Source: Candidatus Binatia bacterium (GTDB lineage Bacteria; Desulfobacterota; Binatia; HRBIN30; CADEER01). Taken from it: DNA of 64,000 nucleotides. The position numbers and the translations under genes were made by a program. Positions 1 to 51,238 of this stretch are shown one piece after another (position 1 is the stretch's first letter; each line of letters opens with the position of its first letter). The stretch spans positions 26,688 to 90,687 of the forward strand of contig JBFXHX010000011.1 in the NCBI GenBank assembly GCA_050176585.1. Reading direction: 5' to 3'. Below the pieces are notes generated by a model. It searched no databases, was not told where the DNA came from, and saw only the letters and a program-made list of their open reading frames with translations.

Positions 1-1
1 C

Positions 2-106
2 ATCAATCCGCCACTGGTGCTGACGGAACAGGAAGCGCGCGACGGCGTCGCGATCCTCGACGAAGTATTCGCCGAAATCGAACGCGACGGCCGCTACCGG
101 GCATGA
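2..106 (+). CDS. 3' end (34 codons) of a class-III (ArgD/GabT-like) aminotransferase; the gene starts upstream of the window
   Basis: Frame 2 reads ...NPPLVLTEQEARDGVAILDEVFAEIERDGRYRA*, a typical class-III aminotransferase C-terminus. The stop TGA at 104-106 overlaps the ATG of the next gene (ATGA). Confidence 0.6.
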   Translation: MNPPLVLTEQEARDGVAILDEVFAEIERDGRYRA

Positions 107-1143
107 GGCCGCGCCGCACGGCCCTCCTCGGATTCGGGCACGTCGCCGAGCACGGGCACCTGCCCGCGTGGCGCGCGCGCCGCGATTTCGCGATCACTGC
201 CGTGGTCGAGCCCGACGGGGCGCGGCGGGAGCTCGCGCGAGCGCTATTGCCCGAGGCTGCCATCTACGCCGACGCGACGAGCCTGTTCGCGGCCGAAACT
301 CTTGATGCGGTCGACATCGCCGCGCCTCCCGCCCTGCATGCGCCCCTAGCGGTCGCCGCGGCGCGCGCCGGTTGTCACATCCTGTGCGAGAAACCGCTCG
401 CGACCGCACTCCCGGATTATCTCGCCATGCGCGAGGCGGCGCGCGCCGCCGGCGTGGCGTTGTGCACGGTGCACAACTGGAAGTACTCGGCGCAATTCGG
501 GCGCCTGGCGGCGATGCTCGCGGGCGGCGAGGTCGGGCGGCCCACGCACATCCGCCTGGAGACGATCCGCACCGGCCGCGCCGTGAGCGTCGGCAGCGAG
601 TGGCGCGGCGACCGCGCGCTCGCCGGCGGCGGCATTCTGGTCGACCACGGCTGGCACACGCTGTACCTCCTGCTCGCGCTCGCCAACGAGCGCCCCGAGC
701 GCGTGTGGGCGCAGATCGAGCGCCGGCGCTACACCGAGGCAGCGGTCGAGGACACCGTCACGTGTCAGATCGAGTTTCCCTCGCTGCGCGGGGAGATCTT
801 CCTCACCTGGGCCGGCGATGCCCGCCGCACGTGCTGGGAAGTGCACGGGTCGAACGGCATCGTGCGCTTGTCCGACGATCGCGGCGCGCTGCACCAGGAC
901 GGCGCACAGCACGACCTCGTGTTCGCGAGCTCGCTCTCGGAAGGGTCGCACCATCCGGACTGGTTCGGCGCGGTGATCGACGACTTCGCCGCCGAGATCG
1001 AGGACGCCGCGCGCCGCGGCCGCAACCTGGCCGAGGCCGAATGCTGCGTGCTGCTCACGGCGCTCGCCTATGAGTCGGGCGCGCAAGGCGGGCGGCCGCT
1101 GGCCGTCCCGGCCGAGCTGCCCGGTGTCGCGACCGCCGGCTGA
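103..1143 (+). CDS. Gfo/Idh/MocA family NAD(P)-dependent oxidoreductase (inositol/sugar dehydrogenase-like)
   Basis: 346-aa ORF with an N-terminal Rossmann-like LLGFGHVAEHGHLPAW and a conserved EKP motif (ILCEKPLA). It is translationally coupled to the upstream aminotransferase. Confidence 0.8.
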   Translation: MRPRRTALLGFGHVAEHGHLPAWRARRDFAITAVVEPDGARRELARALLPEAAIYADATSLFAAETLDAVDIAAPPALHAPLAVAAARAGCHILCEKPLATALPDYLAMREAARAAGVALCTVHNWKYSAQFGRLAAMLAGGEVGRPTHIRLETIRTGRAVSVGSEWRGDRALAGGGILVDHGWHTLYLLLALANERPERVWAQIERRRYTEAAVEDTVTCQIEFPSLRGEIFLTWAGDARRTCWEVHGSNGIVRLSDDRGALHQDGAQHDLVFASSLSEGSHHPDWFGAVIDDFAAEIEDAARRGRNLAEAECCVLLTALAYESGAQGGRPLAVPAELPGVATAG

Positions 1144-1156
1144 ACGCCGCCGCGAC

Positions 1157-2326
1157 ATGGACACCACCCCGGCACCGTGCAACTGTACGGCGGTCATCCT
1201 GCCGCCGGCCGCGATGAGCTTTCATCCCGTGGCCGGGCTCCCGCTGATCCAGCGCGTGGCGCTCAGCGCGCTGCGGGCCGGGTTTGATTCGGTGGTGGCA
1301 CTGGCGCCGTTCGAGGCCGCGCGCCTGCGCGCGGTGTTCGCCCGCGACGCGCGCACCGCGGCGATCCCGGTCGTCGCCGATGCCCGGGACAGCCTGATCG
1401 CGACCGACCGCGTGGCCCTCGTTCCGTCCGACTGCGTGCTGACCACCGGCGCGCTGCAGCGCGTGCGGAGCGCGCACTTGAATGGCCGCCCCGTCGCCTT
1501 CGGCTCGGCGGGCGACGGCATCGTCGTCGGCCCGCGGGCGAGCTTGACGGCGAGCGGCGGCTGCGTCGCCTTCGAGGGCGCTGCGGAGCGCGGCGCCTTG
1601 GCCGGCGAGCTGTGCGTCCGGGTGTCGGACCCCGCCTCCGCCGCGGCGGCCGAGCGCGCACTGCTCGCCACACTCGGCTCGCCGAGCGACGGCCCGATTG
1701 CGCGCTTCGACCGCGCGCTCTCGACGCGGATCAGTCGCTATCTGGTGCGCACGCCGCTGCGGCCGAACCACATCACCACGATCGGCACGTGCACCGGTTT
1801 CGCGGGCGCTTGGGCGCTTGCGCAGGGCACCTACCTCTCCGGCGTGCTCGGCACGCTGCTGTTCTGGGTCGCCGTGATCATCGACGGCTGCGACGGCGAG
1901 GTAGCGCGCCTGAAGTTCCAGGAATCCCGGCTGGGCTATTTGTACGACATCACCACCGACAACCTGGTGCATGCCGCCATCTTCTTCGGCATCGGCGCCG
2001 GCCTGTATCGCGCCGATCCGACGCAGCCGTTCCTCGCGCTGGGGGCGCTGCTCGTAGGCGGGCTGATCTGCGCCACGGCCGCGACGATGACGTTGCTCGT
2101 GCCGGAGTCGCCGGCTGGACAGGCGCCGGCACGGACGGCGCGCGGCCGCTGGCGTCAGCGGCTGCTGCGTGGGTTCGAGGCGCTGATGAACCGGGATTTC
2201 GCCTACCCCTTGTTCGGCTTGGCGTTGCTGGGCCGCCTGGACTGGTTCCTCTGGGGCGCGGCGTTCGGCACGTACGTATACGCAGCCGCTCTCGTGCTCG
2301 TGTACCGATGGCGAGAGGCGGACTAG
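1157..2326 (+). CDS. Bifunctional nucleotidyltransferase-like / CDP-alcohol phosphatidyltransferase (IPCT/DIPPS-like) membrane enzyme
   Basis: The C-terminal half carries a complete CDP-OH-P-transferase signature, D-G-x2-A-R-x8-G-x3-D-x3-D (IDGCDGEVARLKFQESRLGYLYDITTD), plus several TM helices. The N-terminal ~200 aa is MobA/IPCT-like (AVILPPAAMSFHPVAGLPLIQ) but its G-x-G-x-R loop is degenerate. Start placed at MDTTPAP, 14 nt after the upstream stop. Confidence 0.75.
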   Translation: MDTTPAPCNCTAVILPPAAMSFHPVAGLPLIQRVALSALRAGFDSVVALAPFEAARLRAVFARDARTAAIPVVADARDSLIATDRVALVPSDCVLTTGALQRVRSAHLNGRPVAFGSAGDGIVVGPRASLTASGGCVAFEGAAERGALAGELCVRVSDPASAAAAERALLATLGSPSDGPIARFDRALSTRISRYLVRTPLRPNHITTIGTCTGFAGAWALAQGTYLSGVLGTLLFWVAVIIDGCDGEVARLKFQESRLGYLYDITTDNLVHAAIFFGIGAGLYRADPTQPFLALGALLVGGLICATAATMTLLVPESPAGQAPARTARGRWRQRLLRGFEALMNRDFAYPLFGLALLGRLDWFLWGAAFGTYVYAAALVLVYRWREAD

Positions 2327-2333
2327 CACCGCG

Positions 2334-3416
2334 GTGGAGTCCGGCGCGCCGCGCCCGCTGAACCCGTTGGCGCGACCGCTCGCCACCCTCACGCCCATGT
2401 CGGACGGCGTCTCGCTCGCTGCGCCGCGCACTGCCGCGCGGCTGATGATGTGGATCGAGCGCGGCCTGCTGCTGGGCGGCGTAGTGCTGTTCGCGTTCCT
2501 CGTCGAGCGACTCGGAGCGGCGGACGTATGGGCGAACCTGCAGCTGATCGGGTGGGGCTTCGTCCTCGTCTTCGCGCAGGAAGGGCTCGCGTTCGTCTTC
2601 AATACCATCGGCTGGTCGTTCGCCTTCCCGAAGCCCCGCAAATGTACCCGGTTTTCGCAGCTCGTCGCCGCGCGCCTCGCCGGTGAGGCGATCAACAACG
2701 TGACGCCGACGGCGACGATTGGCGGCGAAGTCGTACGGGCGCGCATGATTACCGAGACCTGCGAGTCGCATGTCGCCTGGGCGTCGGTTGCGGTGGCCAA
2801 GTTGGCCCAGACCGCCGCCCAGATGCTGTTCGTGTTTACCGGGCTCGTCCTCCTCGTGCGCGACGTGGAGCTGCCCGCCGGCTATCGGCAGGGCCTGTAT
2901 GCCGGTCTCGCCGCCATCAGCGCGGGGCTCATGCTCGGCATCGCTCTGCAGCGCCGCGGCATGTTCGGCGCCGCCGTGCGGCTGGCGACTCGTCTCGGCG
3001 TGCGCGTGCCCCAGGCGCTGCGCGAGCACGTCACCCGCCTGGATGCGGAAATCGCCCGGGTCTACGCGGAACCGAAGGAGTTCGCCGCCTCCATCGGCGC
3101 CTTTTTCGCCGGCTGGTGCATGGGCGCTGTCGAAGTGTACATCGTCATGTACTTGCTCGGCTTGTCGCCGACGTGGGGACAAGCCGTCACCGTCGAGGTG
3201 CTGTCCGTGGCTATCGATGCGCTCTTCTTCTTCGTGCCGGCCAAAGCCGGCGTTCAAGAAGGCGGGAAGGCGTTGATCTTCCAGCTCATGGGTCTCGACC
3301 CGGGCAAGGGGCTCGTGCTCGGCATCGTGCGGCGGTTGCGCGAGCTGAGCTGGTCGCTGGTCGGCCTGGTGGTGCTGGCGGTGCACCAGTCGCGCGCGCG
3401 GCGCAAACGGGCATGA
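2334..3416 (+). CDS. Flippase-like polytopic membrane protein (lysyl-PG synthase TM-region / UPF0104 family)
   Basis: 360-aa, about 8 TM protein with a GTG start 8 nt after the upstream stop. Its composition and topology are typical of flippase-like domain proteins found next to glycosyltransferases. The stop overlaps the next start (ATGA at 3413-3416). Confidence 0.65.
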   Translation: MESGAPRPLNPLARPLATLTPMSDGVSLAAPRTAARLMMWIERGLLLGGVVLFAFLVERLGAADVWANLQLIGWGFVLVFAQEGLAFVFNTIGWSFAFPKPRKCTRFSQLVAARLAGEAINNVTPTATIGGEVVRARMITETCESHVAWASVAVAKLAQTAAQMLFVFTGLVLLVRDVELPAGYRQGLYAGLAAISAGLMLGIALQRRGMFGAAVRLATRLGVRVPQALREHVTRLDAEIARVYAEPKEFAASIGAFFAGWCMGAVEVYIVMYLLGLSPTWGQAVTVEVLSVAIDALFFFVPAKAGVQEGGKALIFQLMGLDPGKGLVLGIVRRLRELSWSLVGLVVLAVHQSRARRKRA

Positions 3417-4306
3417 GCGCGCGCCGCCAGCTGATCGTCAGCGCCGACGATTTCGGCATGTCGCGGGGCGTCAATGCCGCGATCATGCGCGCCCATCGCG
3501 AGGGCGTGCTCACGCAGGTGAGCTTGATGGTTCGCGGACGGGCGGCCGCGGAAGCGGTCGAGCTCGCCCGCAGCACGCCGTCGCTGAGCGTGGGCCTGCA
3601 TCTCACGCTCGTGCAGGGATATTCCGCGGCACCGAGCGGCGCGGTGCCGCTGCTGGCCGGCGCCGATGGCCGCTTGCGCCGCGATCCCGTGTGGGCCGGC
3701 ATGCGTTATTTTTTCACTCCCGGGGCGCGCCGGCAGATCGAGCGCGAGGTCGTGGCCCAGCTCGAGGCGTTCGCGGCCACCGGCCTGCAGCTCTCGCACG
3801 TCGACGGGCACTTGACGATTCACATGCACCCGATCGTGCTCGGCGTGTTGCTCGATGTCGCGACGCGTTACCGCATCCGCGCGATCCGCCTCTCGGGCGA
3901 CCCGCTCGTCCCGGCGCTGCGCTGGGACGGGCGCCATCTGGGGCGCAAGCTGTTCGAAGCCGGCGTGTTCGGCGGGCTGTCCCGCTGGGCGCTGCCGCAC
4001 GTGCGGCGCGCCGGCCTGCGCCATCCGGACCGGGTCTACGGCATGCACCAGAGCGGCCACGTGTCGGAGGACTACTGGTCGTATCTGCTGCCGGATCTGC
4101 CACCCGGAGTGAGCGAGGTATATTGCCATCCCGCGGTGCTCGACGATGAGGCGCAGCAGTGGCGGCCGGCCGAGTATGCCGGCGACGCCGAGCTCACCGC
4201 GCTCTGCAGCCCGCGCCTGCGCGCGGCGCTCGATGCCGCCGGCATCGAGCGCATCAGCTATCGGGATTTAGTGGAGCCGCGACAGAAATCTGGCCGCAAC
4301 TCCTAA
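3413..4306 (+). CDS. YdjC/ChbG/HpnK-family carbohydrate deacetylase
   Basis: MSARRQLIVSADDFGMSRGVNAAIMRAH... carries the YdjC-family DDFG motif and the HLTL/HVDGH metal-binding histidines. Confidence 0.8.
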   Translation: MSARRQLIVSADDFGMSRGVNAAIMRAHREGVLTQVSLMVRGRAAAEAVELARSTPSLSVGLHLTLVQGYSAAPSGAVPLLAGADGRLRRDPVWAGMRYFFTPGARRQIEREVVAQLEAFAATGLQLSHVDGHLTIHMHPIVLGVLLDVATRYRIRAIRLSGDPLVPALRWDGRHLGRKLFEAGVFGGLSRWALPHVRRAGLRHPDRVYGMHQSGHVSEDYWSYLLPDLPPGVSEVYCHPAVLDDEAQQWRPAEYAGDAELTALCSPRLRAALDAAGIERISYRDLVEPRQKSGRNS

Positions 4307-5946
4307 CCGCCGAACCCGTCTAGCGCCGCGTTCGATCCCGGCCGCATGTCATAGACCTCGGCATAGTTGATGTCGCGGATCGACACGGTACCGACCAGGT
4401 GCCCGCGGCGACGGATGTCCGCCACGTCCTGCTCGGGGAGCCGTTGGCGCTGGCTGATGTACAGCACCACGTAGTCGGCCGCCTTCAGGTCCGGAATGGT
4501 GGTCCCGCACGGGAACGCGCTTCTGATCGCGTGGTACTTGAGCGCAATCTTCACGTCACAGCGCGGCGCCTCGCGCCGGCGAATCTGTTCGCCGGCGATC
4601 TCCAACCCCTCGCCCCAGCCGATGATCACGGCTCGCTCCGCTACGCGCGAACCGCCGAGCAGCGGATTGAAATACGCGAGCCCCCAAGGCGCGACCCACA
4701 CCGCGTGCGCCACCGCGAGCGCGACGGCCAGGGCGCCGGCCGCTGGCAGCCAGCGCCACCGAGCGCCGAGCCGCGCGCGAGCGCTCCGCACGGCGACGTC
4801 GGCGCCGAGCCCGACGGCGAGCGCGACGAGCGGCAGCACTACGACCGCATAGCGATCCATCTGCTTGGCGGCGCAGGATAAGACCGCCATCGGCACCGCG
4901 GCAATCGCGATCAGGCTCAGGACATGCCAGCGCTTGTCGCGCATGAGCGCGAGCGGAAGCAAAGCCAGGACGCCGAGCAGAAACCACGGCGTCATCCGCA
5001 AGGGGAGCGCCACGGCGTAAAACAGCGGGCCGGGCGTACCCGTGATGTGGCCGAGGAAAAATGTCTGATGCGGTGTAAGCGCAAGCTCTGCGGTGTCCAG
5101 CAAGAAACGGATCTGGTGCACGGGATCCGCCCAGATCGCCGGCCAGGTGAGCAGCGCGGCCACGAACCCCAAAGCCGCAGTCGCGAGCAACCGGACCGCA
5201 ACGCGCGGCTCGGCGCCGAGTGGACGGCCGTGCACCCGTCTGGCGCCGTGAAACAGCACGCCGGCCAGTAGCGCGGCAACCCCCAGCAGCAGCGGGAGCG
5301 CTGAGAGCTTGGTGAGCAACGCGCAGCCGAGCAGTGCGCCGCCGGCCGCAGCCAGCCCGCGCCGGCGATCGACGCGTGGCTCCGGGATGCCGAATGCCAG
5401 GAGCATGGCAAGCACACCGGCGGCGCCGAACAACCCGGTGAGCGCGTCGGTGTGGAATGCGGCCCCATGCGCGACCAGGAACGGCTCGGAGGCGAGCAGC
5501 GCGCCGGCCGTGATCGCCGCCACCGGGCCGGCCCATTGCCAGGCGAGAAAGGCAATCACGCCGACCAGCGCGGAGGTCGTCACCGCGACGCCGAGCTGGG
5601 CCCCGTGCAGCGCCTGCGGAGACACCGCGAACGGTTGCTGGCTGGGCGCGGCGAGCCCATACCGCACAGCGACCCAGCTCAGCGCTCGAGTGGCGTTGCC
5701 GATCCACATCGTGGTGACCCCCGGCATCGTCGCCTGCTGGCCGGTGGTCGCCGAAGCGGCGGCAAAATCCCGCCGCAAGATCGCGTCGCCGAACTGCTGC
5801 GTGCGCCGCATCCACAACGGCTCGTCCGCGGTCGAGTACCGGCCCGCGGTCTCGGCGCGCGGCACGAACGCGAGAATGGCCAAGGACGCCGCAACCAGCA
5901 CGGCAGCGCGCCTCGCGACCTGTCCGGTGGTGGTCCACGGGGTCAC
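4303..5946 (-). CDS. GT-C fold glycosyltransferase, ArnT/PMT-like (GT39/GT83), polyprenyl-phosphate-sugar dependent
   Basis: 547-aa polytopic membrane protein with the first-loop DE motif (STADEPLW) typical of ArnT/PMT transferases. Its 3' end overlaps the deacetylase 3' end convergently. Confidence 0.75.
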   Translation of the reverse strand: MTPWTTTGQVARRAAVLVAASLAILAFVPRAETAGRYSTADEPLWMRRTQQFGDAILRRDFAAASATTGQQATMPGVTTMWIGNATRALSWVAVRYGLAAPSQQPFAVSPQALHGAQLGVAVTTSALVGVIAFLAWQWAGPVAAITAGALLASEPFLVAHGAAFHTDALTGLFGAAGVLAMLLAFGIPEPRVDRRRGLAAAGGALLGCALLTKLSALPLLLGVAALLAGVLFHGARRVHGRPLGAEPRVAVRLLATAALGFVAALLTWPAIWADPVHQIRFLLDTAELALTPHQTFFLGHITGTPGPLFYAVALPLRMTPWFLLGVLALLPLALMRDKRWHVLSLIAIAAVPMAVLSCAAKQMDRYAVVVLPLVALAVGLGADVAVRSARARLGARWRWLPAAGALAVALAVAHAVWVAPWGLAYFNPLLGGSRVAERAVIIGWGEGLEIAGEQIRRREAPRCDVKIALKYHAIRSAFPCGTTIPDLKAADYVVLYISQRQRLPEQDVADIRRRGHLVGTVSIRDINYAEVYDMRPGSNAALDGFGG

Positions 5947-6074
5947 GCGCCGGCACGCTGCAAAACACAGCGCGGGAAAGCAACCTGCGCGTGCGATCGG
6001 TAGTGGGTCCGTTTGCTTCTCGGCGCAGGCTGGACGGACGTGAACCCCGCACGCGGCAGTGGCATATTGCCACC

Positions 6075-6500
6075 ATGCTGAAGACGCGGGTTCTGTTCCT
6101 CTGCACGGGCAATTCCGCCCGGAGCCAGATGGCCGAGGGCTTCCTGCGCCATCTGGCGGGCGGCCGCTTCGAGGCGGTCAGCGCTGGAATCAACCCAACC
6201 GTGGTCAACCCGCTCGCGATCAAGGCGATGCGCGAACTCGGAATCGACATCTCGGCGCAGCGGTCGAAGTCGGCGGGCAGCCTACTAGGCCAGCATTTTC
6301 CCTACGTCATCACCGTCTGCGACAAGGCCAACGAACGTTGCCCGATCTTCCCTGGCGTCGTGAAGCGGCTGCACTGGCCCCTGAGGGACCCGGCCGCCGC
6401 GACCGGAACCGAGGGTGAGCGCTCGGCGGTCTTCCGCGCCGTCCGCGACGAGATCCATCAGCGCGTGCGCGGGTTCATCGCTGCCCCTGCATGCAGCTAG
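6075..6500 (+). CDS. arsC: Arsenate reductase, thioredoxin-coupled LMW-PTP family (ArsC)
   Basis: The CX5R P-loop LFLCTGNSARSQMAEGF and the two downstream Cys (VCD...ERCP) match Bacillus-type ArsC. No arsB/acr3/arsR gene is adjacent. Confidence 0.8.
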   Translation: MLKTRVLFLCTGNSARSQMAEGFLRHLAGGRFEAVSAGINPTVVNPLAIKAMRELGIDISAQRSKSAGSLLGQHFPYVITVCDKANERCPIFPGVVKRLHWPLRDPAAATGTEGERSAVFRAVRDEIHQRVRGFIAAPACS

Positions 6501-6802
6501 CGCCGCAAACGGCTCGACGACGCCTCAAGCGTCCCCGCGATCCGGGTCCAGCTCGCCAAGCTGATCGGCCACATCGCCACCGGCAAGGTCGAGGATCAGC
6601 CGCCTCGTGGATCGAGCCCGACGGCGCGACATGGACTGCTGATCAGATCGCAGCGCTTCGTCAACCCAACATGTTCGACACAGCGACCGCACACGGACGC
6701 GAAAATATCCCGCACGATTCAAGTACGTGTCTCCGTGCGACGATTCCCGCTGCGCATTACAGACATCGGTCGATGTGCACCGAATTGAGAGATGGGCGCC
6801 TC

Positions 6803-6991
6803 TTAGCGGCGGCGGCGCCGACGCAGCTCGTCGAGCTGCATCTCGAGCGCCTTCTGCTGAATCGCGCGATCGCGCTCGGCGCGCTGCTCCGGCGTCATGC
6901 GATGGTTCAGATCTTCCCAGCGACGATACTTCGCCGCAGTGCGTGTCGCCGGCGCTGTCTGTCGGCGCACGGGCGGTGCCTTCGCCTTCAT
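6803..6991 (-). CDS. Small basic hypothetical protein (62 aa, Lys/Arg-rich N-terminus, C-terminal poly-Arg)
   Basis: MKAKAPPVRRQTAPATRTAAKYRRWEDLNHRMTPEQRAERDRAIQQKALEMQLDELRRRRRR. A consensus Shine-Dalgarno GGAGGAG lies 7 nt upstream of the ATG. No family recognised. Confidence 0.5.
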   Translation of the reverse strand: MKAKAPPVRRQTAPATRTAAKYRRWEDLNHRMTPEQRAERDRAIQQKALEMQLDELRRRRRR

Positions 6992-7367
6992 CGATGGGTC
7001 TCCTCCAGATATGCGAGCCACAGGCGCTCGGCGAATCGTACATATTGCCGAGCCACACCGCCGCATTCGACGCCTGCTCGACCACCAAGCTGCGCGCCAT
7101 CAATGGCGGCAGCTTTATCACCAGCTTCTGGCGGCGCCGGACGAACTTACCTGCCCCCCTTCTCCGCCGCAGGCATAATCTCCTCCGTGTTAGGCCGGCT
7201 GGCGATGACTCAAACCAAAATGACCGCTACCCTGCGGTCGAGCGCTTTTCGAGAGCGCGGCCCTTGCGCTACGTTGCCGGCGCGACGGAGTGCAGCATCC
7301 ATGCGCAGCGGAAAGACCAGCACCGGGGCCCCACGCGTACCAGACCTCGCGAGCCGGTGAGCATCGT

Positions 7368-8348
7368 TTGAATACCCGGGCTGACTCGACGCAGGTGCAC
7401 CTCTCGGCCGTCGTACCGCTCTTCGACGAAGAGCCCACGCTCGCCGACCTCTACGAGCGCCTAACCCGAGTCTTGCGCGCGCTCGGGGCGCCGTACGAGA
7501 TTTTGTTCGTCGATGACGGCAGCACCGACGGCGGCCCGGCGCTGCTCGACCGCCTGGCGAGCCAGGACCCCTGCGTGGGCGTGCTGCACCTGCGGCGCAA
7601 CTACGGCAAGTCGGCCGCTCTCGACGCCGGCTTTCGCGCCGCGCGCGGGCGGGTCGTCGCCACGCTCGATGCCGATCTTCAAGACCCGCCCGAGGAACTG
7701 CCCAAGCTGCTCGCGAAGCTCGAGGAGGGCTTCGACGCGGTGAGCGGCTGGAAACAGGGACGGCGCGACCCACTGCGCCGGCGCTTGGCGTCGCGCGTGT
7801 TCAACGCCGTGGTGCGCCGCCTCGCGCGCTTGCCACTGCACGACCTGAACTCCGGGTTCAAGGTGTACCGCGCGGAGGCATTGCACGAGCTTCACCTATA
7901 CGGCGATCTGCATCGCTACGTGCTCGTGTTGCTGGCCGGCAGCGGCTATCGCATCGGAGAAGTGGCCGTGCGCCATGCCCCCCGCCAGCACGGGCGTTCC
8001 AAATACGGTGTGGAGCGCCTGACCAACGGGTTCTTCGACCTGCTGACGGTGACGATGAACATCCGCTACCGCGCGCGCCCACTGCACCTGTTTGGTCTAG
8101 CGGGTCTCGGATTGGCGGGCGTTGGATTGGCCGTGCTGCTCTATTTGACCGTGCTGTGGTTCGTCGGCGAGGGCCCGATCGGCCACCGGCCGCTGCTGTT
8201 CCTCGGGCTGCTCCTCATGATGCTCGGCGTGCAGCTCATCAGCACGGGTTTGCTCGGCGAGCTGATCAACCGGCAGATACACCGCCAGGAGCCCTCGTAC
8301 GCGGTGCGCAACTTTGCCGCGCCGGGCAGCGCGCGCGGTGCGGACTGA
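7368..8348 (+). CDS. GT2 polyprenyl-phosphate glycosyltransferase (ArnC/DPM-synthase/GtrB-like) with C-terminal TM anchor
   Basis: LSAVVPLFDEE...ILFVDDGSTDG...DADLQDP is the GT2 DXD architecture. Two C-terminal TM helices resemble ArnC/GtrB. The start is uncertain: TTG 7368 or GTG 7395. Confidence 0.85.
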   Translation: MNTRADSTQVHLSAVVPLFDEEPTLADLYERLTRVLRALGAPYEILFVDDGSTDGGPALLDRLASQDPCVGVLHLRRNYGKSAALDAGFRAARGRVVATLDADLQDPPEELPKLLAKLEEGFDAVSGWKQGRRDPLRRRLASRVFNAVVRRLARLPLHDLNSGFKVYRAEALHELHLYGDLHRYVLVLLAGSGYRIGEVAVRHAPRQHGRSKYGVERLTNGFFDLLTVTMNIRYRARPLHLFGLAGLGLAGVGLAVLLYLTVLWFVGEGPIGHRPLLFLGLLLMMLGVQLISTGLLGELINRQIHRQEPSYAVRNFAAPGSARGAD

Positions 8349-8426: not shown

Positions 8427-9029
8427 TCACCGCGCCGACGTTTCGCCGCACGCGCACGCCGCGTCCTCTGCCACCTGATCGCCCCACTGCACCCACCCGG
8501 GCCGGCGATAGCGCGCGAAAAGCTCCAGATACGGGGCCGGGCTGCACGATTCCACCACCGAGTAGAGCCGCTCCGGCTTGCGGGAGTGAGCGCGCTTGCG
8601 CTCGCACACGATATTCACCTGACGCCGGCCCGGCCACTGCGTGCGCAAGGAACCGCGCACGCCGAACAGTACCAACTCAGTGACGTTGCGAAAGTAGAAC
8701 CCCACGCCGCGCCCATCCGGCCCACCGTCGACGCGGATCTTGTACCAGACCAGATTCGCCTTGTACCGGAAGCCCCAGGCGGCCAGCACGTCCAACCCCC
8801 ACGGGATCAGCGCATTCGGCACCCAGAGGTACAGATGCGCGCGCGCAGCGGCCAACCCGCCGACTGGTAGCGCCGCGATATCGGTGACGGACATCGTCGG
8901 GTAGCGATGCAGGCGGCGGTGCTCCGGGGCGATCTTCCCGGTGCGGTTCTGGAACCGCCACGGCGGATCGGCGAGGATCGTTCCAAACGGTCCGTGCAGG
9001 GCGGCCAGTGAATCGGTGAGCGCGCTCAT
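8427..9029 (-). CDS. MT-A70 family N6-adenine DNA methyltransferase
   Basis: MSALTDSLAALHGPFGTILADPPWRFQN carries the DPPW catalytic motif. The SD GGGAGGTGGTG lies directly upstream of the ATG at 9029. The longer ORF from a TTG at 9137 was rejected. Confidence 0.8.
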   Translation of the reverse strand: MSALTDSLAALHGPFGTILADPPWRFQNRTGKIAPEHRRLHRYPTMSVTDIAALPVGGLAAARAHLYLWVPNALIPWGLDVLAAWGFRYKANLVWYKIRVDGGPDGRGVGFYFRNVTELVLFGVRGSLRTQWPGRRQVNIVCERKRAHSRKPERLYSVVESCSPAPYLELFARYRRPGWVQWGDQVAEDAACACGETSAR

Positions 9030-9133
9030 CACCACCTCCCGCCTGCTCGTCGCCAGGCGGCGAGCGAGGTGTCGATGCCATGCGCAGCACCAATTGCCAA
9101 GCGGGCCGGCGCTGGGCGGGTCACGCGCGCCGA

Positions 9134-9412
9134 TCAACCCTCGAGCTCGAATGGGAGCTGGTGCCGCTTCGCCGCATTACACGCGCGACAGGCGGGCACC
9201 ACGTTGCCCTTGGTCGAGCGGCCGCCGCGGATGATGGGCACGAGGTGGTCCATGGTCAGCGACTTGGCCCCGACCTGGGCGCCGCAATAGTGACAGATGC
9301 CCGGCGCGCACCGGCGCTTCCACCATGGGGAAGCGCGCAATGCGCGCGCTTTGACGCGCTCGCGTTTGATCGCCGCGTCGTCGACTTCGACGAGAAACCC
9401 ACCGCCGCTCAC
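9134..9412 (-). CDS. HNH endonuclease (small, phage-type)
   Basis: CHYCGAQVGAKSLTMDHLVPIIRGGRSTKGNVVPACRACNAAKRH is an HNH motif with a zinc-binding Cys pair. GTG start. It sits immediately upstream of the MTase. Confidence 0.75.
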   Translation of the reverse strand: MSGGGFLVEVDDAAIKRERVKARALRASPWWKRRCAPGICHYCGAQVGAKSLTMDHLVPIIRGGRSTKGNVVPACRACNAAKRHQLPFELEG

Positions 9413-9877
9413 CGGCTGAGGCTACGGGAGCGCGACCGCGCGGCGCAAGTGGGCTTCGTTGAGCTCACGGAGCGTCACCCATGTGCGCCGTGGGGACTGG
9501 CGCGCTCGGGAAAAGACGACGGGAGCCCCGACCCATTCTGAACATCACGACCAACGGCTGCGGTGAACGCCGCAGTGAGAAGGGAGGCTCTGGTCCGGCA
9601 ACGCGTCGGCGTCCACGCACGATTTCGGCGCTCACGCGAAGGAATGGTCGTCACCTGGGGAGTGACACGTGCTCGAGTGGTGACACTGGAGGGCGCCGCT
9701 CCCCAGCGTCGCGGCCATTGCCCTTCGCGACGAGCCTATCCGTTGGCGCTTTCCGCGGCCCGGCGCCGCGATCCGACAACAAGCGGGAGGGATGCACGCT
9801 CGTCTTTGAGGCCATTGCATGGCGCGCCATGGCAAGCGCGGAGAAGGGGTGCTCGCAATCTGCCGACCGCCTCACGC

Positions 9878-45536: not shown

Positions 45537-45841
45537 CCGCCGACCAGCACCGCGCGCGGTACTCCGGCTCTCCGGGTGCGGATGCGCCGGCAAGCTCCTC
45601 TTCCGCCGCGGCCCAGGTCGATGATCTCGAACTCATCCCCCGCGCGGTGCGCGACAAGCTCGACCGCACCGGCATTAAGCTCCGCCTGCGCGAGTGGTCG
45701 CTGCTAGCCCGCGAAGAGCGGCAGCGGCTGGTCGATGCGCCGTGCCAGTCGGCAGCCGAGGTCGCCAGCTATGCGACCCTCCTCGACCGCATGGTCCGCG
45801 CGCGCAGCGGCAGGCTGCCCGACCGCTTGCCTCCGCGGTGA
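45533..45841 (+). CDS. Small protein resembling the nitrate-reductase-associated protein family (assignment tentative)
   Basis: LELIPRAVRDKLDRTGIKLRLREWSLLAREERQRL resembles, from memory, the conserved core of that small-protein family. Not verified. Confidence 0.4.
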   Translation: MTADQHRARYSGSPGADAPASSSSAAAQVDDLELIPRAVRDKLDRTGIKLRLREWSLLAREERQRLVDAPCQSAAEVASYATLLDRMVRARSGRLPDRLPPR

Positions 45842-45884
45842 AATCCCGCGGCCTTCCGGCCTCTGCAGTGGCTCGGCAACCAGC

Positions 45885-47687
45885 GTGAAATCACTCGTCC
45901 GCATCGCCAACGCCGGCGGGTACTGGGGCGACGATCCGGAGGCGCTCCGCCGGCAGGTGACCGGCGGACCGCTCGATTATGTGACCATGGATTTCCTGGC
46001 GGAAATCACCATGGTGATCCTGCAACGCCAGCGCGCTCGGGATCCCAAAGCGGGCTTCGCGCGCGATTTCATCGAGCACCTGCAGCTCGCGCTGCCGCCG
46101 ATCGCAGAGAGCGGTGTGACCGTGATCGTCAATGCCGGCGGCATCAATCCGACCGGCTGTGCCGAAGCGGTCGAGGCGCTCTGTGCGCGCGCAGGCGTCG
46201 ACCTGCCGCTCGGCATCGTGGACGGCGATGACCTGCTGCCGGAGCTCGCAGCGCTCGAGGCTGCCGGCGTGCAGCTGGACCATATGGACGGGAGCCGCCG
46301 TTTCGCGGAGATCCGCGGGCGGGTCGTCGCGGCCAACGCGTATCTGAGCGCCGCACCCGTCGTCGCGGCCCTGCGCGGCGGCGCCCGCATCGTCATCACC
46401 GGGCGCACCACAGACGCCGCGCTCATCCTCGCGCCACTCGTGCATGAGTTCGGCTGGGCGTGGGACGACTGGGATCGGCTCGCGGCGGGCATCGCCGCCG
46501 GCCACATCCTCGAGTGCGGGGCGCAGGCCACCGGAGGCAACTTCACGGATTGGCAGCGCATCCCGTCCATGCTCGACGTCGGCTACCCCATCGCCGAAGC
46601 ACGCGCCGACGGGACGTTCGTCGTCACCAAGCATCCACACACCGGCGGCGTCGTGAGCTTGCGCACCGTCACCGAGCAGTTGCTCTACGAGATCGGCGAC
46701 CCGCGCGCATACGCAACCCCTGACGTGGTCGCAGACTTCACGAGCCTGCAGCTCTCGCTCGACGGGCCCGACCGCGTGCGCGTCTCCGGCGCGCGCGGCC
46801 GGCCCGCCCCGCAGAACCTGAAGGTATCGGTCGTGTACCAGGCCGGCTATCGCGCCGTCGGCACCGCGCTGATCTCGGGTCCGAACGCCGTCGCCAAAGG
46901 CGAGCGACTCGCGGAGATGCTCTGGCACCGCCTCGGGACCGACTTCACCGATCGCCGTGTCGACTTCATCGGCCACAACGCGTGCTGGGGCGGTGCCGTG
47001 GCCCCCGCGCACGAGCCAAACGAGATCATCTTCCGCGCCGGTGTGGCCGACGCCGATCGCGCCAAGATAAAGCGGTTCGCCGACCACTTGCTCGGCTTCG
47101 CGCTGCAAGGGCCGCCCGGTCTCGGCCTCTTCGGCGGCCGCCCGGACGTTCAGGAAGCTTTCGGCTTCTGGCCGGCGCTGGTGCCGCGCGACCGCGTGAC
47201 CGCGCGCGTCGCCCTTCGCCATGGCGGCGAGCAGGCGGTCCAGGAGGTGCCCCTGACGCTACCCGCGGCGCCGCCGACCCGCGCGCCGGACGCGGCGCGT
47301 GAAGTCGCCATCGAGGTGGCGGACGGCGAGCGCGCGGCGCGCACCAGCCGCGTACGCCTGCAGACGATCGCGTACGCGCGCTCCGGCGACAAGGGTGACC
47401 ACGCCAACATCGGCGTCGCCGCGCGCTCTCCGCAGGCGTACGGTTTCCTCCGCGAAGCGCTCACGGCGAAGCGCGTGCGCGCCTTCTACCGCGATCTCGT
47501 CCGCGGCCCGATCGAGCGCTACGAACTCCCCAACCTGTTGGCGTTCAACTTCCTCATGCAGCACGCGCTCGGCGGCGGCGGTACGCTCTCGTTGCGCGTC
47601 GACCACCAGGGCAAGACGCTCGCGCAAGGCCTGCTGGCGCTGGAGCTGGACGTGCCCGAGGACGTGCTCGCCTCAGTGGGCGCGTGA
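45885..47687 (+). CDS. AtuA-like acyclic-terpene-utilisation family protein (DUF1446 + DUF4387)
   Basis: GTG start. VRIANAGGYWGDD N-terminus; the C-terminal YARSGDKGDHANIGV block. About 600 aa, as for AtuA homologues. Confidence 0.7.
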   Translation: MKSLVRIANAGGYWGDDPEALRRQVTGGPLDYVTMDFLAEITMVILQRQRARDPKAGFARDFIEHLQLALPPIAESGVTVIVNAGGINPTGCAEAVEALCARAGVDLPLGIVDGDDLLPELAALEAAGVQLDHMDGSRRFAEIRGRVVAANAYLSAAPVVAALRGGARIVITGRTTDAALILAPLVHEFGWAWDDWDRLAAGIAAGHILECGAQATGGNFTDWQRIPSMLDVGYPIAEARADGTFVVTKHPHTGGVVSLRTVTEQLLYEIGDPRAYATPDVVADFTSLQLSLDGPDRVRVSGARGRPAPQNLKVSVVYQAGYRAVGTALISGPNAVAKGERLAEMLWHRLGTDFTDRRVDFIGHNACWGGAVAPAHEPNEIIFRAGVADADRAKIKRFADHLLGFALQGPPGLGLFGGRPDVQEAFGFWPALVPRDRVTARVALRHGGEQAVQEVPLTLPAAPPTRAPDAAREVAIEVADGERAARTSRVRLQTIAYARSGDKGDHANIGVAARSPQAYGFLREALTAKRVRAFYRDLVRGPIERYELPNLLAFNFLMQHALGGGGTLSLRVDHQGKTLAQGLLALELDVPEDVLASVGA

Positions 47688-48957: not shown

Positions 48958-50556
48958 TCAACGGGCTGCTACCCCCGAGGCAACCGTGCCAGCGGGCAGA
49001 TAGCCCGCGGCGAGCTCGGCGTACGACCGCACCTGCTGGTCGATCCACGCCGCATCGCGGCCTAGCTCCTCCGCGATCAGCCGGGCGGCCAGCGGCGCGG
49101 CCTCGATCGAGGCGCGCGCATCGAGCAGCAGCGAGCGCGTGCGGCGCGCGAGAGCATCTTCGAGCGTGCGGGCCATCTCGTGGCGCGCCGCCCACGTGAT
49201 CTGACCGCGGTAATAGGGCAGCCGGTCGTGGAGCAAGGCGCGGCGCGCCGGTTCCTGATCGAGAAACGCTTGCACGTCGGCGGCATCCGAACCGTACATC
49301 TGCATGTGGCGCGCGCTGGGCAGGGTGGGATCGGTCGGGGCGAGGCAGCCGTGCAGGCGCAGATGCTCGGTGACGCACGGGCGCTCGGGCAAGCCGCCGA
49401 CCGCGACCGCGTCGTCCACGGTGTCCTGCGCCATCTTGCGGTATGTCGTCCACTTGCCGCCCACGATAGTGACCAGCCCGCCCGGGGAGATCACGACCAC
49501 GTGCTCGCGCGAGATCGATTTCGTCGCCAGCGCGCCGTGGACCGGCTGCACGAGCGGGCGCAGGCCGGCGAAGTAGCTGAGCACGTCCGCCTCCGCAGGC
49601 GCGCGATTCAGGTAGCGCGCCGCGTTGCGCAGGATGAAGGCGACCTCTTCGTCGAGCGGCCGCGGCTCGATCGCGGGCTCCGCGACGGGCGTGTCGGTGG
49701 TGCCGATCAGACAGCGATCCTGCCACGGGATCACGAACAGCACGCGTCCGTCGTCCGTCTGCGGCACCATGATCGCCGTATCGCTGGGTTGAAACCGGCG
49801 GTCGAGCACCAGGTGCACGCCCTGGCTCAGCGACACCATGGGCTCGCTGGCGCGATCGTCGAGACGCCGCACGGCGTCGGTGAACGCGCCGGTGGCATTG
49901 ATGACCACTTTGGCGCGGAGCTCGCGTTGCCGGCCGGTCTCGCCGTCCACCGCCATGACGCCGCGCACCATTCCACCGGCTTTCAGCAAGCCGACCGCGG
50001 CCATGTAGTTCACCAGCACGGCCCCGTGATCGGCGGCGGTCTGCGCCAGCGCCAGCGCCAGGCGCGCATCGTCGAACTGCGCGTCATGGTACATGGCGCC
50101 GCCGATCAGGTGTTTCGTTTCCACGTTGGGAATGCGCTCGATCGTCTGCTTGCGGTTCAGCTGGCGCGACTTCGCGATGTTCAGCCGCCCCGCGAGCACG
50201 TCGTAGAGCTTGAAGCCGATGCCGTAGAAGGGCCCCTCCCACCACTTGTAGCGCGGCACGACGAACGCCAGATCGTGCACGAGGTGGGCGGCGTTGCGGC
50301 ACAACAAACCGCGCTCGCGCAGCGCCTCGAGCACGAGCGCGACGTTGCCTTGCTTCAAGTAGCGCACGCCGCCGTGCACGAGCTTGGTGCTGCGGCTCGA
50401 GGTGGCCTTGGCAAAGTCGTACTGCTCGATCAACAGCGTGCGATAGCCACGCGTCTGCGCATCGACGGCCACGCCGAGGCCCGTCGCCCCGCCGCCGATC
50501 ACGATGACGTCCCACGGCTCGCCGTCGAGCCGTGGGATCATGCGCTCGCGCTTCAT
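48958..50556 (-). CDS. glpD: FAD-dependent glycerol-3-phosphate dehydrogenase
   Basis: WDVIVIGGGATGLGVAVDAQTRGYRTLLIEQYDFAKATSSRSTKLVHGGVRY. The start could be 50556 or 50541. Confidence 0.85.
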   Translation of the reverse strand: MKRERMIPRLDGEPWDVIVIGGGATGLGVAVDAQTRGYRTLLIEQYDFAKATSSRSTKLVHGGVRYLKQGNVALVLEALRERGLLCRNAAHLVHDLAFVVPRYKWWEGPFYGIGFKLYDVLAGRLNIAKSRQLNRKQTIERIPNVETKHLIGGAMYHDAQFDDARLALALAQTAADHGAVLVNYMAAVGLLKAGGMVRGVMAVDGETGRQRELRAKVVINATGAFTDAVRRLDDRASEPMVSLSQGVHLVLDRRFQPSDTAIMVPQTDDGRVLFVIPWQDRCLIGTTDTPVAEPAIEPRPLDEEVAFILRNAARYLNRAPAEADVLSYFAGLRPLVQPVHGALATKSISREHVVVISPGGLVTIVGGKWTTYRKMAQDTVDDAVAVGGLPERPCVTEHLRLHGCLAPTDPTLPSARHMQMYGSDAADVQAFLDQEPARRALLHDRLPYYRGQITWAARHEMARTLEDALARRTRSLLLDARASIEAAPLAARLIAEELGRDAAWIDQQVRSYAELAAGYLPAGTVASGVAAR

Positions 50557-50581
50557 CCCCGCGCCGCCCGGGCGCGCGGTG

Positions 50582-51238
50582 TCATGTCGCGCCCGGTCCG
50601 CGCAGCGTAGGAAACAAGCCGTGAATCCCGTCGGCCATAAACTGCACGGCCATCGCCACCAGGATCATGCCCATCAAGCGGCTGACGACGTTCACACCCG
50701 TGCGCCCGAGCAACCGCAGGAGAGCGTCCGAGTAGCGCAGAAAGGCCCAGCAGAGCAGCGCGTTGGCGACGATGCCGACTACCAGCGTGCCCCAGAGGTG
50801 CCATGCCATCGCCTGGTGGTCGAACACGATCACCGTGCTCAGCGAACCGGCGCCGGCGAGGATCGGCGTGCCAATCGGCACGATTGCGATCTCGCGCCAC
50901 TGCGCGGCCTCCGCGGCTTCGGCCGGCGTCGTCTTGGCGCGACTGACCTCGCCCTGGAGCATCGACAGGCCCATCAGGAGGATGAGCACGCCGCCGCCCA
51001 CCTGGAAGGCGGGCACGGTGATGCCGAAAAAATGGAGCATGTCCTCGCCGATGAGGAGTGCCAGCATCAGCGCCAGGAACACGGTGGTCGCGGCGAGCAG
51101 TGCGACGCGCCGGGTGGTCTCGGCGGTCGGCGCCTGGACCATGGCGAGGTACAGCGGCACCGCGTGCACCGGGTTGAGGACCGAGAACAGCGTGACGAAG
51201 AAGCTCAGCCCGAAGCCGAGCACCGTAGTGCGCTGCAT
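50582..51238 (-). CDS. MarC-family (UPF0056) membrane protein
   Basis: 6-TM protein from MQRTTVLGFGLSFFVTLFSVLNP, a MarC-family N-terminus. Confidence 0.7.
   Translation of the reverse strand: MQRTTVLGFGLSFFVTLFSVLNPVHAVPLYLAMVQAPTAETTRRVALLAATTVFLALMLALLIGEDMLHFFGITVPAFQVGGGVLILLMGLSMLQGEVSRAKTTPAEAAEAAQWREIAIVPIGTPILAGAGSLSTVIVFDHQAMAWHLWGTLVVGIVANALLCWAFLRYSDALLRLLGRTGVNVVSRLMGMILVAMAVQFMADGIHGLFPTLRGPGAT

Follow-up and report, generated by a model that had tools for sequence, protein, structure and literature searches.

Hopanoids are major membrane lipids of bacteria and are among the most widely used molecular fossils. To our knowledge, all of the side-chain chemistry described for them is glycosidic, ether, amine or amide. 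For one of the associated genes, hpnL, the function has been an open matter since the 1990s. Papers from 2025-2026 still call it unknown, and the surveys of hpn clusters in them mention no CDP-alcohol transferase. Amongst the CDP-alcohol phosphotransferases (CAPTs), those with six transmembrane (TM) helices act on a soluble acceptor, for instance inositol phosphate, irrespective of the donor to which CDP is linked, and two members, AF2299 and DIPPS, do not process lipids (PMC4634129). Here we describe an operon from an uncultured Candidatus Binatia bacterium in which genes of both kinds are found together. It lies at the start of a 64,000-nucleotide stretch of contig JBFXHX010000011.1 (the window; G+C ~70%) and encodes a CAPT of the AF2299/DIPPS type (hereafter the CDP-OH transferase), an HpnL-like membrane protein and an HpnK deacetylase. 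We regard it as evenly poised whether the operon serves to link a phosphodiester-bound (amino)cyclitol or amino-sugar head group to a lipid, which would most likely be an extended hopanoid.

Window positions 1-4306 are the 3' five-eighths of one operon. Genes on the two strands were resolved by analysis of the G+C content at third codon positions (GC3) together with a list of open reading frames (ORFs); these, and the sequence at the junctions, bear out a first-pass annotation that described five tightly packed plus-strand genes, a convergent GT-C glycosyltransferase gene and a GT2 gene downstream. ATGA start/stop overlaps are present at 103-106 and 3413-3416, and the TAA stop of the last gene (4304-4306) overlaps that of the convergent GT-C gene (4303-4305). 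The two remaining junctions are gaps of 13 nt (1144-1156) and 7 nt (2327-2333); the short spacing reported earlier thus stands, and the values of 14 and 8 nt given for it do not, which is a trivial difference. The domain assignments proved right. The Gfo/Idh/MocA protein is identical on contigs of two Candidatus Binatia metagenome-assembled genomes (MAGs) at NCBI and on several Logan contigs, all 99.8-99.98% identical to the window, and extension of the sequence upstream along these contigs places the start of the operon three genes before the window, at genes for a HAD-IA hydrolase, a 237-aa nucleotidyltransferase (NT) of the active type and a 267-aa ATP-grasp protein. The order of the eight genes is therefore HAD phosphatase, NT, ATP-grasp ligase-like protein, class-III aminotransferase, Gfo/Idh/MocA oxidoreductase, CDP-OH transferase, HpnL-like protein and HpnK. 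On the near-identical contigs their ends overlap or nearly abut, in keeping with the co-transcribed unit proposed from the window. Upstream of the window and divergent from the operon, at L001:1491-6133 of a MAG contig, are genes for a glycerol kinase, a GlcD-like FAD oxidase and a GlpD-like glycerol-3-phosphate dehydrogenase, an arrangement conserved in Binatia only; a second GlpD-like gene is found at window 48958-50664.

The core enzyme is the CDP-OH transferase. CDP-OH_P_transf (PF01066) matches its C-terminal half only (E 2e-9, 38.4 bits against a cut-off of 22), where an intact CAPT motif, D-x2-DG-x2-AR-x8-G-x3-D-x3-D, lies on TM2-TM3; the residues D243, D246, G247, A250, R251, G260, D264 and D268 are invariant in sets of 13 and of 41 homologues. 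The closest solved relatives by sequence are AF2299 (4o6m; E 1.9e-21) and the Archaeoglobus IPCT-DIPPS (4mnd; E 1.5e-15), and an AlphaFold2 model (pLDDT 92) superposes on both over its full length, with Foldseek TM-scores of 0.73-0.76 to AF2299. In this predicted model the catalytic core consists of six TM helices (180-383) and a juxtamembrane helix, and is matched by Foldseek to AF2299, DIPPS and PIPS. The N-terminal domain of the model, taken alone, matches RmlA, GlmU, MurU and IspD, whereas at the level of sequence its match to NTP_transf_3 is weak (E 0.0045) and it has neither the GxGxR loop nor the PK lysine, reading AVILPPAAMSF...PVAGLPLIQR. The description of the protein as an IPCT/DIPPS-like CDP-alcohol transferase with a degenerate NT domain is thus correct, because the NT fold is present and the Gly-rich loop and Lys of active nucleotidyltransferases are lacking. 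The N-terminal domain is not a catalytically competent cytidylyltransferase by these features; the signature sits instead in the separate upstream NT gene, the product of which keeps GxGxRL and PKPL in every locus examined. A paralogous CDP-OH-like protein of ~440-465 aa adjoins the main one, mainly in Myxococcota MAGs (L048:7249-8646, L038:1-1521, L068:7322-8452 and six more); it may be non-catalytic, as the G-x3-D-x3-D half of its motif is degenerate.

The genomic setting of the enzyme was examined by scanning one genome per GTDB species, which gave 527 relatives of the CDP-OH transferase confirmed by tblastn. The best 80 loci were taken with 10-kb flanks, the operon proteins were mapped on them, and all ORFs were clustered all-against-all and the clusters checked against family libraries. 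Binatia, Myxococcota, Elusimicrobiota, Syntrophobacterales, Methylomirabilota, Gemmatimonadota and other phyla are represented among them. The HpnL-like gene is found near the CDP-OH gene more constantly than any other, in 45 of the 80, and a cassette of HAD, NT, ATP-grasp, aminotransferase and oxidoreductase genes accompanies the CDP-OH gene in 35, from Binatia, Myxococcota, Elusimicrobiota, Syntrophobacterales, Planctomycetota and one gammaproteobacterial MAG. The neighbourhood of cassette, CDP-OH transferase and HpnL is therefore conserved in related genomes, yet over at least six phylum-level groups the cassette occurs in differing orders and orientations, an argument that the linkage is functional and not simply inherited.

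The same loci contain hopanoid genes. The first-pass annotation had noted a likeness to the hopanoid side-chain genes and set it aside for want of a cyclase or radical-SAM gene. The 64-kb window indeed encodes no squalene-hopene cyclase (SHC), HpnH, HpnI, HpnJ or HpnN, but when related genomes are taken into account no signal is stronger than the hopanoid link. In 35 of the 80 loci, one or more of HpnJ, HpnI, HpnH and SHC are encoded within 10 kb: HpnJ (715.6 bits against a cut-off of 577.6) in 23, HpnI (330.5 against 310) in 17, HpnH (484 against 225) in six and SHC (798 against 431) in three. HpnK occurs in 26 loci, the window protein being an orthologue by its score of 307.7 bits for TIGR03473 (cut-off 232.6) and the others being assigned by 39-69% identity to it. 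An HpnN-like RND protein (11 loci) and an HpnM-like MlaC protein (13 loci) also recur, with representatives scoring below the curated cut-offs. Loci of Elusimicrobiota have hpnJ-hpnI-CDP-OH-hpnL in this order and a convergent hpnK; the Binatia relatives that are closest to the window after L007 and L008 have the same eight-gene operon followed by a DMT transporter gene and a convergent hpnJ (L010, L013, L018, L021, L023, L024 and L087); and in L031, L034 and L060 the order is myo-inositol-1-phosphate synthase (MIPS), CDP-OH, B12-radical-SAM, NT, HpnH, HpnM, HpnL, OEP and HpnN. MIPS is an adjacent gene in seven loci, and in L078 it is inside the operon. Four MAGs have in-frame fusions, single ORFs of 884-1220 aa that encode a full HpnJ radical-SAM enzyme and, after it, the NT-like/CDP-OH protein (Table 1).

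One cluster of ORFs (cluster 3) was at first sight uniformly HpnJ and is not, since 15 of its loci (16 ORFs) carry a different B12-binding radical-SAM protein. Members of this second family share ~24% identity with HpnJ and have no matching equivalog in NCBIfam; in the 15 loci, from Binataceae and Syntrophus-like MAGs, their gene immediately follows that for the CDP-OH transferase (e.g. L058:11208-12536, L034:3136-4599 and L040:11215-12540). Other recurring genes (panC, coaX, RNase H, MBL hydrolase, SDR and RND adaptor) were dismissed as partners, being housekeeping or lineage-specific. Loci of the Binataceae type (L037, L040, L056, L058, L071, L075 and others) have two extra cassette genes between the aminotransferase and the oxidoreductase, one for a small GmhB/PNK3P-like HAD phosphatase and the other for an F420-dependent LLM-class oxidoreductase (TIGR03619, 238.8 bits against 166.9).

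The HpnL-like protein of the window belongs to the LPG_synthase_TM family (E 2.2e-27), the phospholipid flippase domain of MprF, and falls just below the cut-off for HpnL itself (TIGR03476, 187 bits against 195.65). The HpnK protein has a strong match to Pfam YdjC (E 7e-70). Less can be read from the soluble enzymes of the cassette. The class-III aminotransferase call made earlier could not be confirmed from the window alone, as the 34 codons there match no family; it is confirmed by the full protein of 451 aa on the MAG contigs (L001:8649-10004; Aminotran_3, E 3.8e-97). This is the best-conserved cassette protein, with 54-88% identity across phyla as against 30-60% for the others, and its nearest solved relatives in a search of PDB sequences are GABA-AT-like enzymes. 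The oxidoreductase has matches to three GFO_IDH_MocA domains in Pfam (E 2e-18 to 2e-21); in NCBIfam it is matched best by inositol 2-dehydrogenase (72 bits, cut-off 355), and among solved structures it is closest to aldose-aldose oxidoreductase, 1,5-anhydrofructose reductase, GFOR and scyllo-inositol dehydrogenase. Searches of PDB sequences with these two proteins thus returned generic family neighbours only, and no substrate assignment. The 267-aa upstream protein, which has no Pfam family, is an ATP-grasp enzyme according to its AlphaFold model (pLDDT 93.5), for which the best Foldseek matches are D-Ala-D-Ala (Ddl), LysX/ArgX and RimK ligases (E ~1e-12); K130, K178, D239 and N241, which include the nucleotide-Mg Lys and Asp/Asn residues expected of such an enzyme, are invariant. 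An ITPK-type inositol kinase was considered on the strength of weak local matches to Pfam and PDB sequences and a DxNxxP motif, and is not favoured because the high-confidence model is closest to carboxylate-amine ligases.

Gene content, folds and motifs, operon structure, synteny and the fusions are observed; beyond them a route can be proposed in which every substrate, the order of the steps and, in this organism, the hopanoid partner are those that we infer. The oxidoreductase and aminotransferase would replace a hydroxyl on a cyclitol or sugar by an amine. The leading candidate is inositol from MIPS, at which the adjacent MIPS genes and the best curated match of the oxidoreductase hint. 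The ATP-grasp enzyme might acylate or otherwise activate the head group, and the stand-alone NT, which has the signature lost by the N-terminal domain of the CDP-OH transferase, would make a CDP-linked species. The membrane-embedded CDP-OH transferase would then form the phosphodiester between head group and lipid partner, and the HAD enzyme would strip a leftover phosphate, as in the conversion of phosphatidylinositol phosphate (PIP) to phosphatidylinositol and in the final step to di-myo-inositol phosphate (DIP) from its phosphorylated precursor, DIPP. HpnK would take off an N-acyl group, and passage of the product through the inner membrane would fall to HpnL. As lipid partner an extended hopanoid is the likeliest, because the CDP-OH family is embedded in hopanoid side-chain clusters and, in some genomes, fused to HpnJ; candidates are bacteriohopanetetrol, its glucosamine or cyclitol-ether derivative, or an intermediate derived from ribosylhopane. 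With a soluble acceptor the hopanoid would itself be the CDP-linked donor, and one example would be the phosphoribosylhopane that HpnG is expected to yield, in the form of a CDP derivative. The first suggestion, an amino-sugar or aminocyclitol-phosphate head group on a lipid, remains the best guess, although the Arn/Gtr-type framing in which it was put forward is not supported (see below). Each of the proteins is in a known superfamily, but the combination has not been described: in line with the first-pass annotation, the gene set matches no described operon. We put forward only tentatively, as a proposal somewhat more apt to fail than to hold, that extended hopanoids with a phosphodiester-linked (amino)cyclitol or amino sugar (‘phospho-bacteriohopanepolyols’) form an undescribed lipid class, with an AF2299-type coupling enzyme and HpnL as the flippase.

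Several observations weigh against a hopanoid product. A tblastn search of the 64-kb window with HpnJ, HpnI, HpnH, HpnN, HpnM, MIPS and SHC found nothing, the ~10 kb upstream of the window contain no cyclase, hpnH, hpnI or hpnJ, and a database search with HpnJ and two contig look-ups reached other Binatia MAGs and not this one, of which ~74 kb were read. In the sub-lineage of L001 and L007, the position that HpnJ has in other Binatia is occupied by other genes, and six cassette loci from Myxococcota and Elusimicrobiota have no hopanoid gene within 10 kb. The closest characterised homologues of the CDP-OH transferase, DIPPS and AF2299, are non-lipid enzymes (PMC4634129), and since the six-TM class takes soluble acceptors, the CDP-linked donor could only be the lipid unless the acceptor rule is broken; none of the enzymes encoded here is known to produce a donor of that kind. 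Nor is any N-acetyl donor or acetyltransferase evident that would explain the need for a deacetylase. The family-level scores of the cassette enzymes are all far below the equivalog cut-offs, so that their substrates are unreadable from homology. The literature searched contained no phosphate-containing bacteriohopanepolyol, and its full texts, from which many papers in subscription journals are absent, do not link hopanoids to CDP-alcohol transferases, cytidylyltransferases other than IspD, MIPS or phosphodiesters.

Because of these weaknesses, a glycerophospholipid and a DIP-like solute remain live rivals. A new glycerophospholipid, which we consider unlikely but by no means negligible, would arise if the cassette made a soluble (amino)cyclitol phosphate that the CDP-OH transferase coupled to CDP-diacylglycerol (CDP-DAG), as PIP synthase does, after which the HAD enzyme would remove the extra phosphate, HpnK would trim an N-acyl group and HpnL would flip the lipid; hopanoid genes would be nearby merely because genes for membrane lipids cluster. 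PIP synthase and archaetidylinositol-phosphate synthase are among the closest characterised relatives of the CDP-OH transferase, the phospholipid flippase domain of MprF is of the same family as HpnL, and the cassette loci that lack nearby hopanoid genes and the divergent glycerol kinase and GlpD genes in Binatia also fit this explanation. It accords, too, with the rule for six-TM enzymes, which take a soluble acceptor and can use CDP-DAG as donor (PMC4634129). It does not account for the in-frame fusions to HpnJ, the repeated insertion of the CDP-OH gene between hpnI/J and hpnL/K, or an HpnK above the hopanoid equivalog cut-off, and an NT of the sugar-1-phosphate type would be needless if the donor were CDP-DAG. 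The other rival, a soluble phosphodiester such as an amino-inositol or glycerol phosphodiester compatible solute, would require that the NT make a CDP-polyol, the CDP-OH transferase join it to a polyol phosphate and the HAD enzyme dephosphorylate the product. NT, CAPT and phosphatase are exactly the logic of the DIP pathway, MIPS is associated with the family, and the best structural and sequence relatives, AF2299 (with CDP-glycerol as donor) and IPCT-DIPPS, are non-lipid enzymes. Yet the constant pairing with HpnL, along with HpnK, HpnJ, HpnN and HpnM, would be without a role in solute synthesis, and the CDP-OH transferase is not a bifunctional IPCT/DIPPS by the equivalog NF041135 (53.8 bits against a cut-off of 580). 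DIP is, moreover, a solute of thermophiles, whereas the hosts here are mesophilic lineages of soil and sediment. We judge this explanation improbable.

The framing of the first-pass annotation was a periplasmic modification of the Arn/Gtr/Lgm type, in which the GT2 loads a sugar on polyprenyl phosphate, the YdjC protein deacetylates, the flippase flips and the GT-C enzyme transfers the sugar, supplied in unusual form by the upstream genes, to lipid A or a glycan. All four types of component do occur within 8.3 kb, and GT2 with GT-C is a classic pairing. The identity of the convergent gene as GT-C is also borne out, although by transitive homology: the 547-aa protein itself has no direct match in Pfam, NCBIfam or PDB sequences, but the profile of its family (~2,100 cluster representatives) matches ArnT (5ezm, E 2.4e-7) and PMT1/2, 33 of 40 relatives match Pfam PMT_2, and a first-loop Asp-Glu pair, D41-E42, is (nearly) invariant. 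The GT2 has a clear match to Glycos_transf_2 (E 2e-33), and its best NCBIfam match is to ArnC (PRK10714, 180.6 bits against a cut-off of 529). The claim that the operon converges on this GT-C and is followed by a polyprenyl-phosphate GT2 as parts of one system is nevertheless not supported. Outside the near-identical contigs, neither the GT-C nor the low-molecular-weight phosphatase-like gene has a homologue at E<=1e-3 in ~85 related loci, and homologues of the ArnC-like GT2 are present in only two of them (L022 and L026); these genes are therefore lineage-specific neighbours, and there is neither a linked ArnC/GtrB-type GT2 orthologue nor a conserved GT-C. The GT-C gene is convergent, and the GT2 is separated from the operon by an unrelated gene and ~870 nt without a convincing ORF. 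The Arn system, furthermore, uses ArnD of the polysaccharide-deacetylase family and the small ArnE/F flippase rather than YdjC and LPG_synthase_TM proteins, and the CDP-alcohol transferase would be left without a role. On synteny we rejected the Arn/Gtr model, and as an account of the operon it is very improbable; the GT-C and GT2 probably form a separate pair.

If the operon does make a phosphodiester-linked hopanoid, the consequences would be considerable. From a CDP-alcohol phosphotransferase embedded in, and sometimes fused to, hopanoid side-chain genes one would predict a head group linked through phosphate, which would escape the standard work-ups for bacteriohopanepolyols (periodate cleavage and acetylation) as well as target lists. 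It would provide a first function for HpnL and a hopanoid analogue of phosphatidylinositol in bacterial membranes, in Binatia, Methylomirabilota, Rokubacteria, Gemmatimonadota, Elusimicrobiota and several lineages formerly placed in the Deltaproteobacteria (Syntrophobacterales, Desulfobacterales and Myxococcota). This amounts to a testable hypothesis for HpnL and for a new class of biomarker in abundant uncultured phyla of soil and sediment. Were the lipid partner diacylglycerol instead, the operon would still represent a new pathway to an aminocyclitol- or aminosugar-phospholipid with a wide phylogenetic spread.

The features discussed are collected in Table 1. Between the phosphatase-like gene and the GT2 gene, window 6500-7290 is a region of ~800 nt with lower G+C (0.67), without a clear GC3 frame or convincing ORF, and with no match to an Rfam family; an ORF at 6491-7360 (289 aa) looks non-coding and was rejected as a linking gene, its translation being rich in Arg, Ser and Ala, without a family match and uncalled by NCBI. 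No riboswitch, other RNA or tRNA was found in the window. Downstream of the GT2, an MT-A70 DNA methyltransferase gene (8427-9413, minus strand) adjoins an HNH endonuclease gene, and ~240 bp inside the former are missing from one of the two near-identical MAG contigs, a strain-level indel. A gene of the AtuA family (acyclic terpene utilisation) is present at 45708-47687, with no evident tie to the operon. The remaining genes are housekeeping ones (recA, alaS, a class-I release factor, bioB, recQ and others).

Table 1. Positions of the operon genes and their neighbours in the window, and of the HpnJ fusions in related loci.
Feature	Position	Strand	Remark
Class-III aminotransferase, 3' end, 34 codons	1..106	+	Gene 4 of the eight-gene operon
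Gfo/Idh/MocA NAD(P)-dependent sugar or cyclitol oxidoreductase, 346 aa	103..1143	+	
AF2299/DIPPS-type CDP-alcohol phosphotransferase (CDP-OH transferase), 389 aa	1157..2326	+	Core enzyme
HpnL-like membrane protein, LPG_synthase_TM (MprF flippase-domain) family, 360 aa	2334..3416	+	
HpnK, YdjC-family N-deacetylase, 297 aa	3413..4306	+	Last operon gene
ArnT/PMT-like GT-C glycosyltransferase, 547 aa	4303..5946	-	Convergent; neighbour outside the conserved system
Low-molecular-weight phosphatase/ArsC-like protein, 141 aa as called on MAG contig	6075..6500	+	Neighbour
ArnC-like GT2 (polyprenyl-phosphate sugar synthase type), 326 aa	7368..8348	+	Neighbour
HpnJ fusions	L050:2238-4901, L064:7991-10738, L082:6425-9079, L085:2144-5806		Gemmatimonadota, two Methylomirabilia (Methylomirabilota), Rokubacteria

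Comparison with the described systems shows the operon to resemble several of them in part. The locus is like Arn (ArnC/ArnD/ArnE-F/ArnT) and Gtr in that, within 8 kb, enzymes of the GT2 and GT-C types occur together with a deacylase and a flippase-like protein, but the deacylase and flippase-like protein are of other families and the two glycosyltransferase genes are not syntenic elsewhere. As with PIP synthase (PgsA1) and archaetidylinositol-phosphate synthase, a CDP-linked donor and a cyclitol-phosphate acceptor followed by dephosphorylation can be envisaged, and MIPS is found in some loci; the CDP-OH transferase, however, scores 52-54 bits against equivalog cut-offs of 170-180, and the operon differs from those pathways in its extra amination and ligation enzymes and in its hopanoid, rather than mannoside or GPI, context. 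The resemblance to IPCT/DIPPS and AF2299 of Archaeoglobus fulgidus extends to the two-domain architecture, the six-TM fold, the intact CAPT motif, the signature of the juxtamembrane helix and the logic of NT, CAPT and phosphatase. Identity is nevertheless only ~20%, the function of the N-terminal domain, which is without the catalytic Gly-rich loop and Lys, is supplied here by a separate NT gene, and the operon, which belongs to mesophilic bacteria, has its ties to genes for membrane lipids and not to the synthesis of a solute. With the hopanoid side-chain (hpn) pathway the locus has in common an HpnK above the curated cut-off and an adjacent HpnL-like gene, and in related genomes the CDP-OH gene lies between or beside hpnI, hpnJ, hpnK, hpnL, hpnH, hpnN and hpnM; the logic of placing a polar group on a lipid, deacetylating it and flipping it is also shared. 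The window differs in having no HpnI, HpnJ, SHC or HpnH, and the hpn pathway as described includes no CDP-alcohol phosphotransferase, NT, ATP-grasp, Gfo/Idh/MocA or HAD step and has phosphate-free products. Finally, HexSDF of Clostridioides difficile and systems of the MprF type use a triad of synthase, deacetylase and flippase-like protein to present a cationic amino-lipid on the outer leaflet. The synthase in those cases is a glycosyltransferase, whereas here it is a CDP-alcohol phosphotransferase fed by a head-group cassette of five enzymes.

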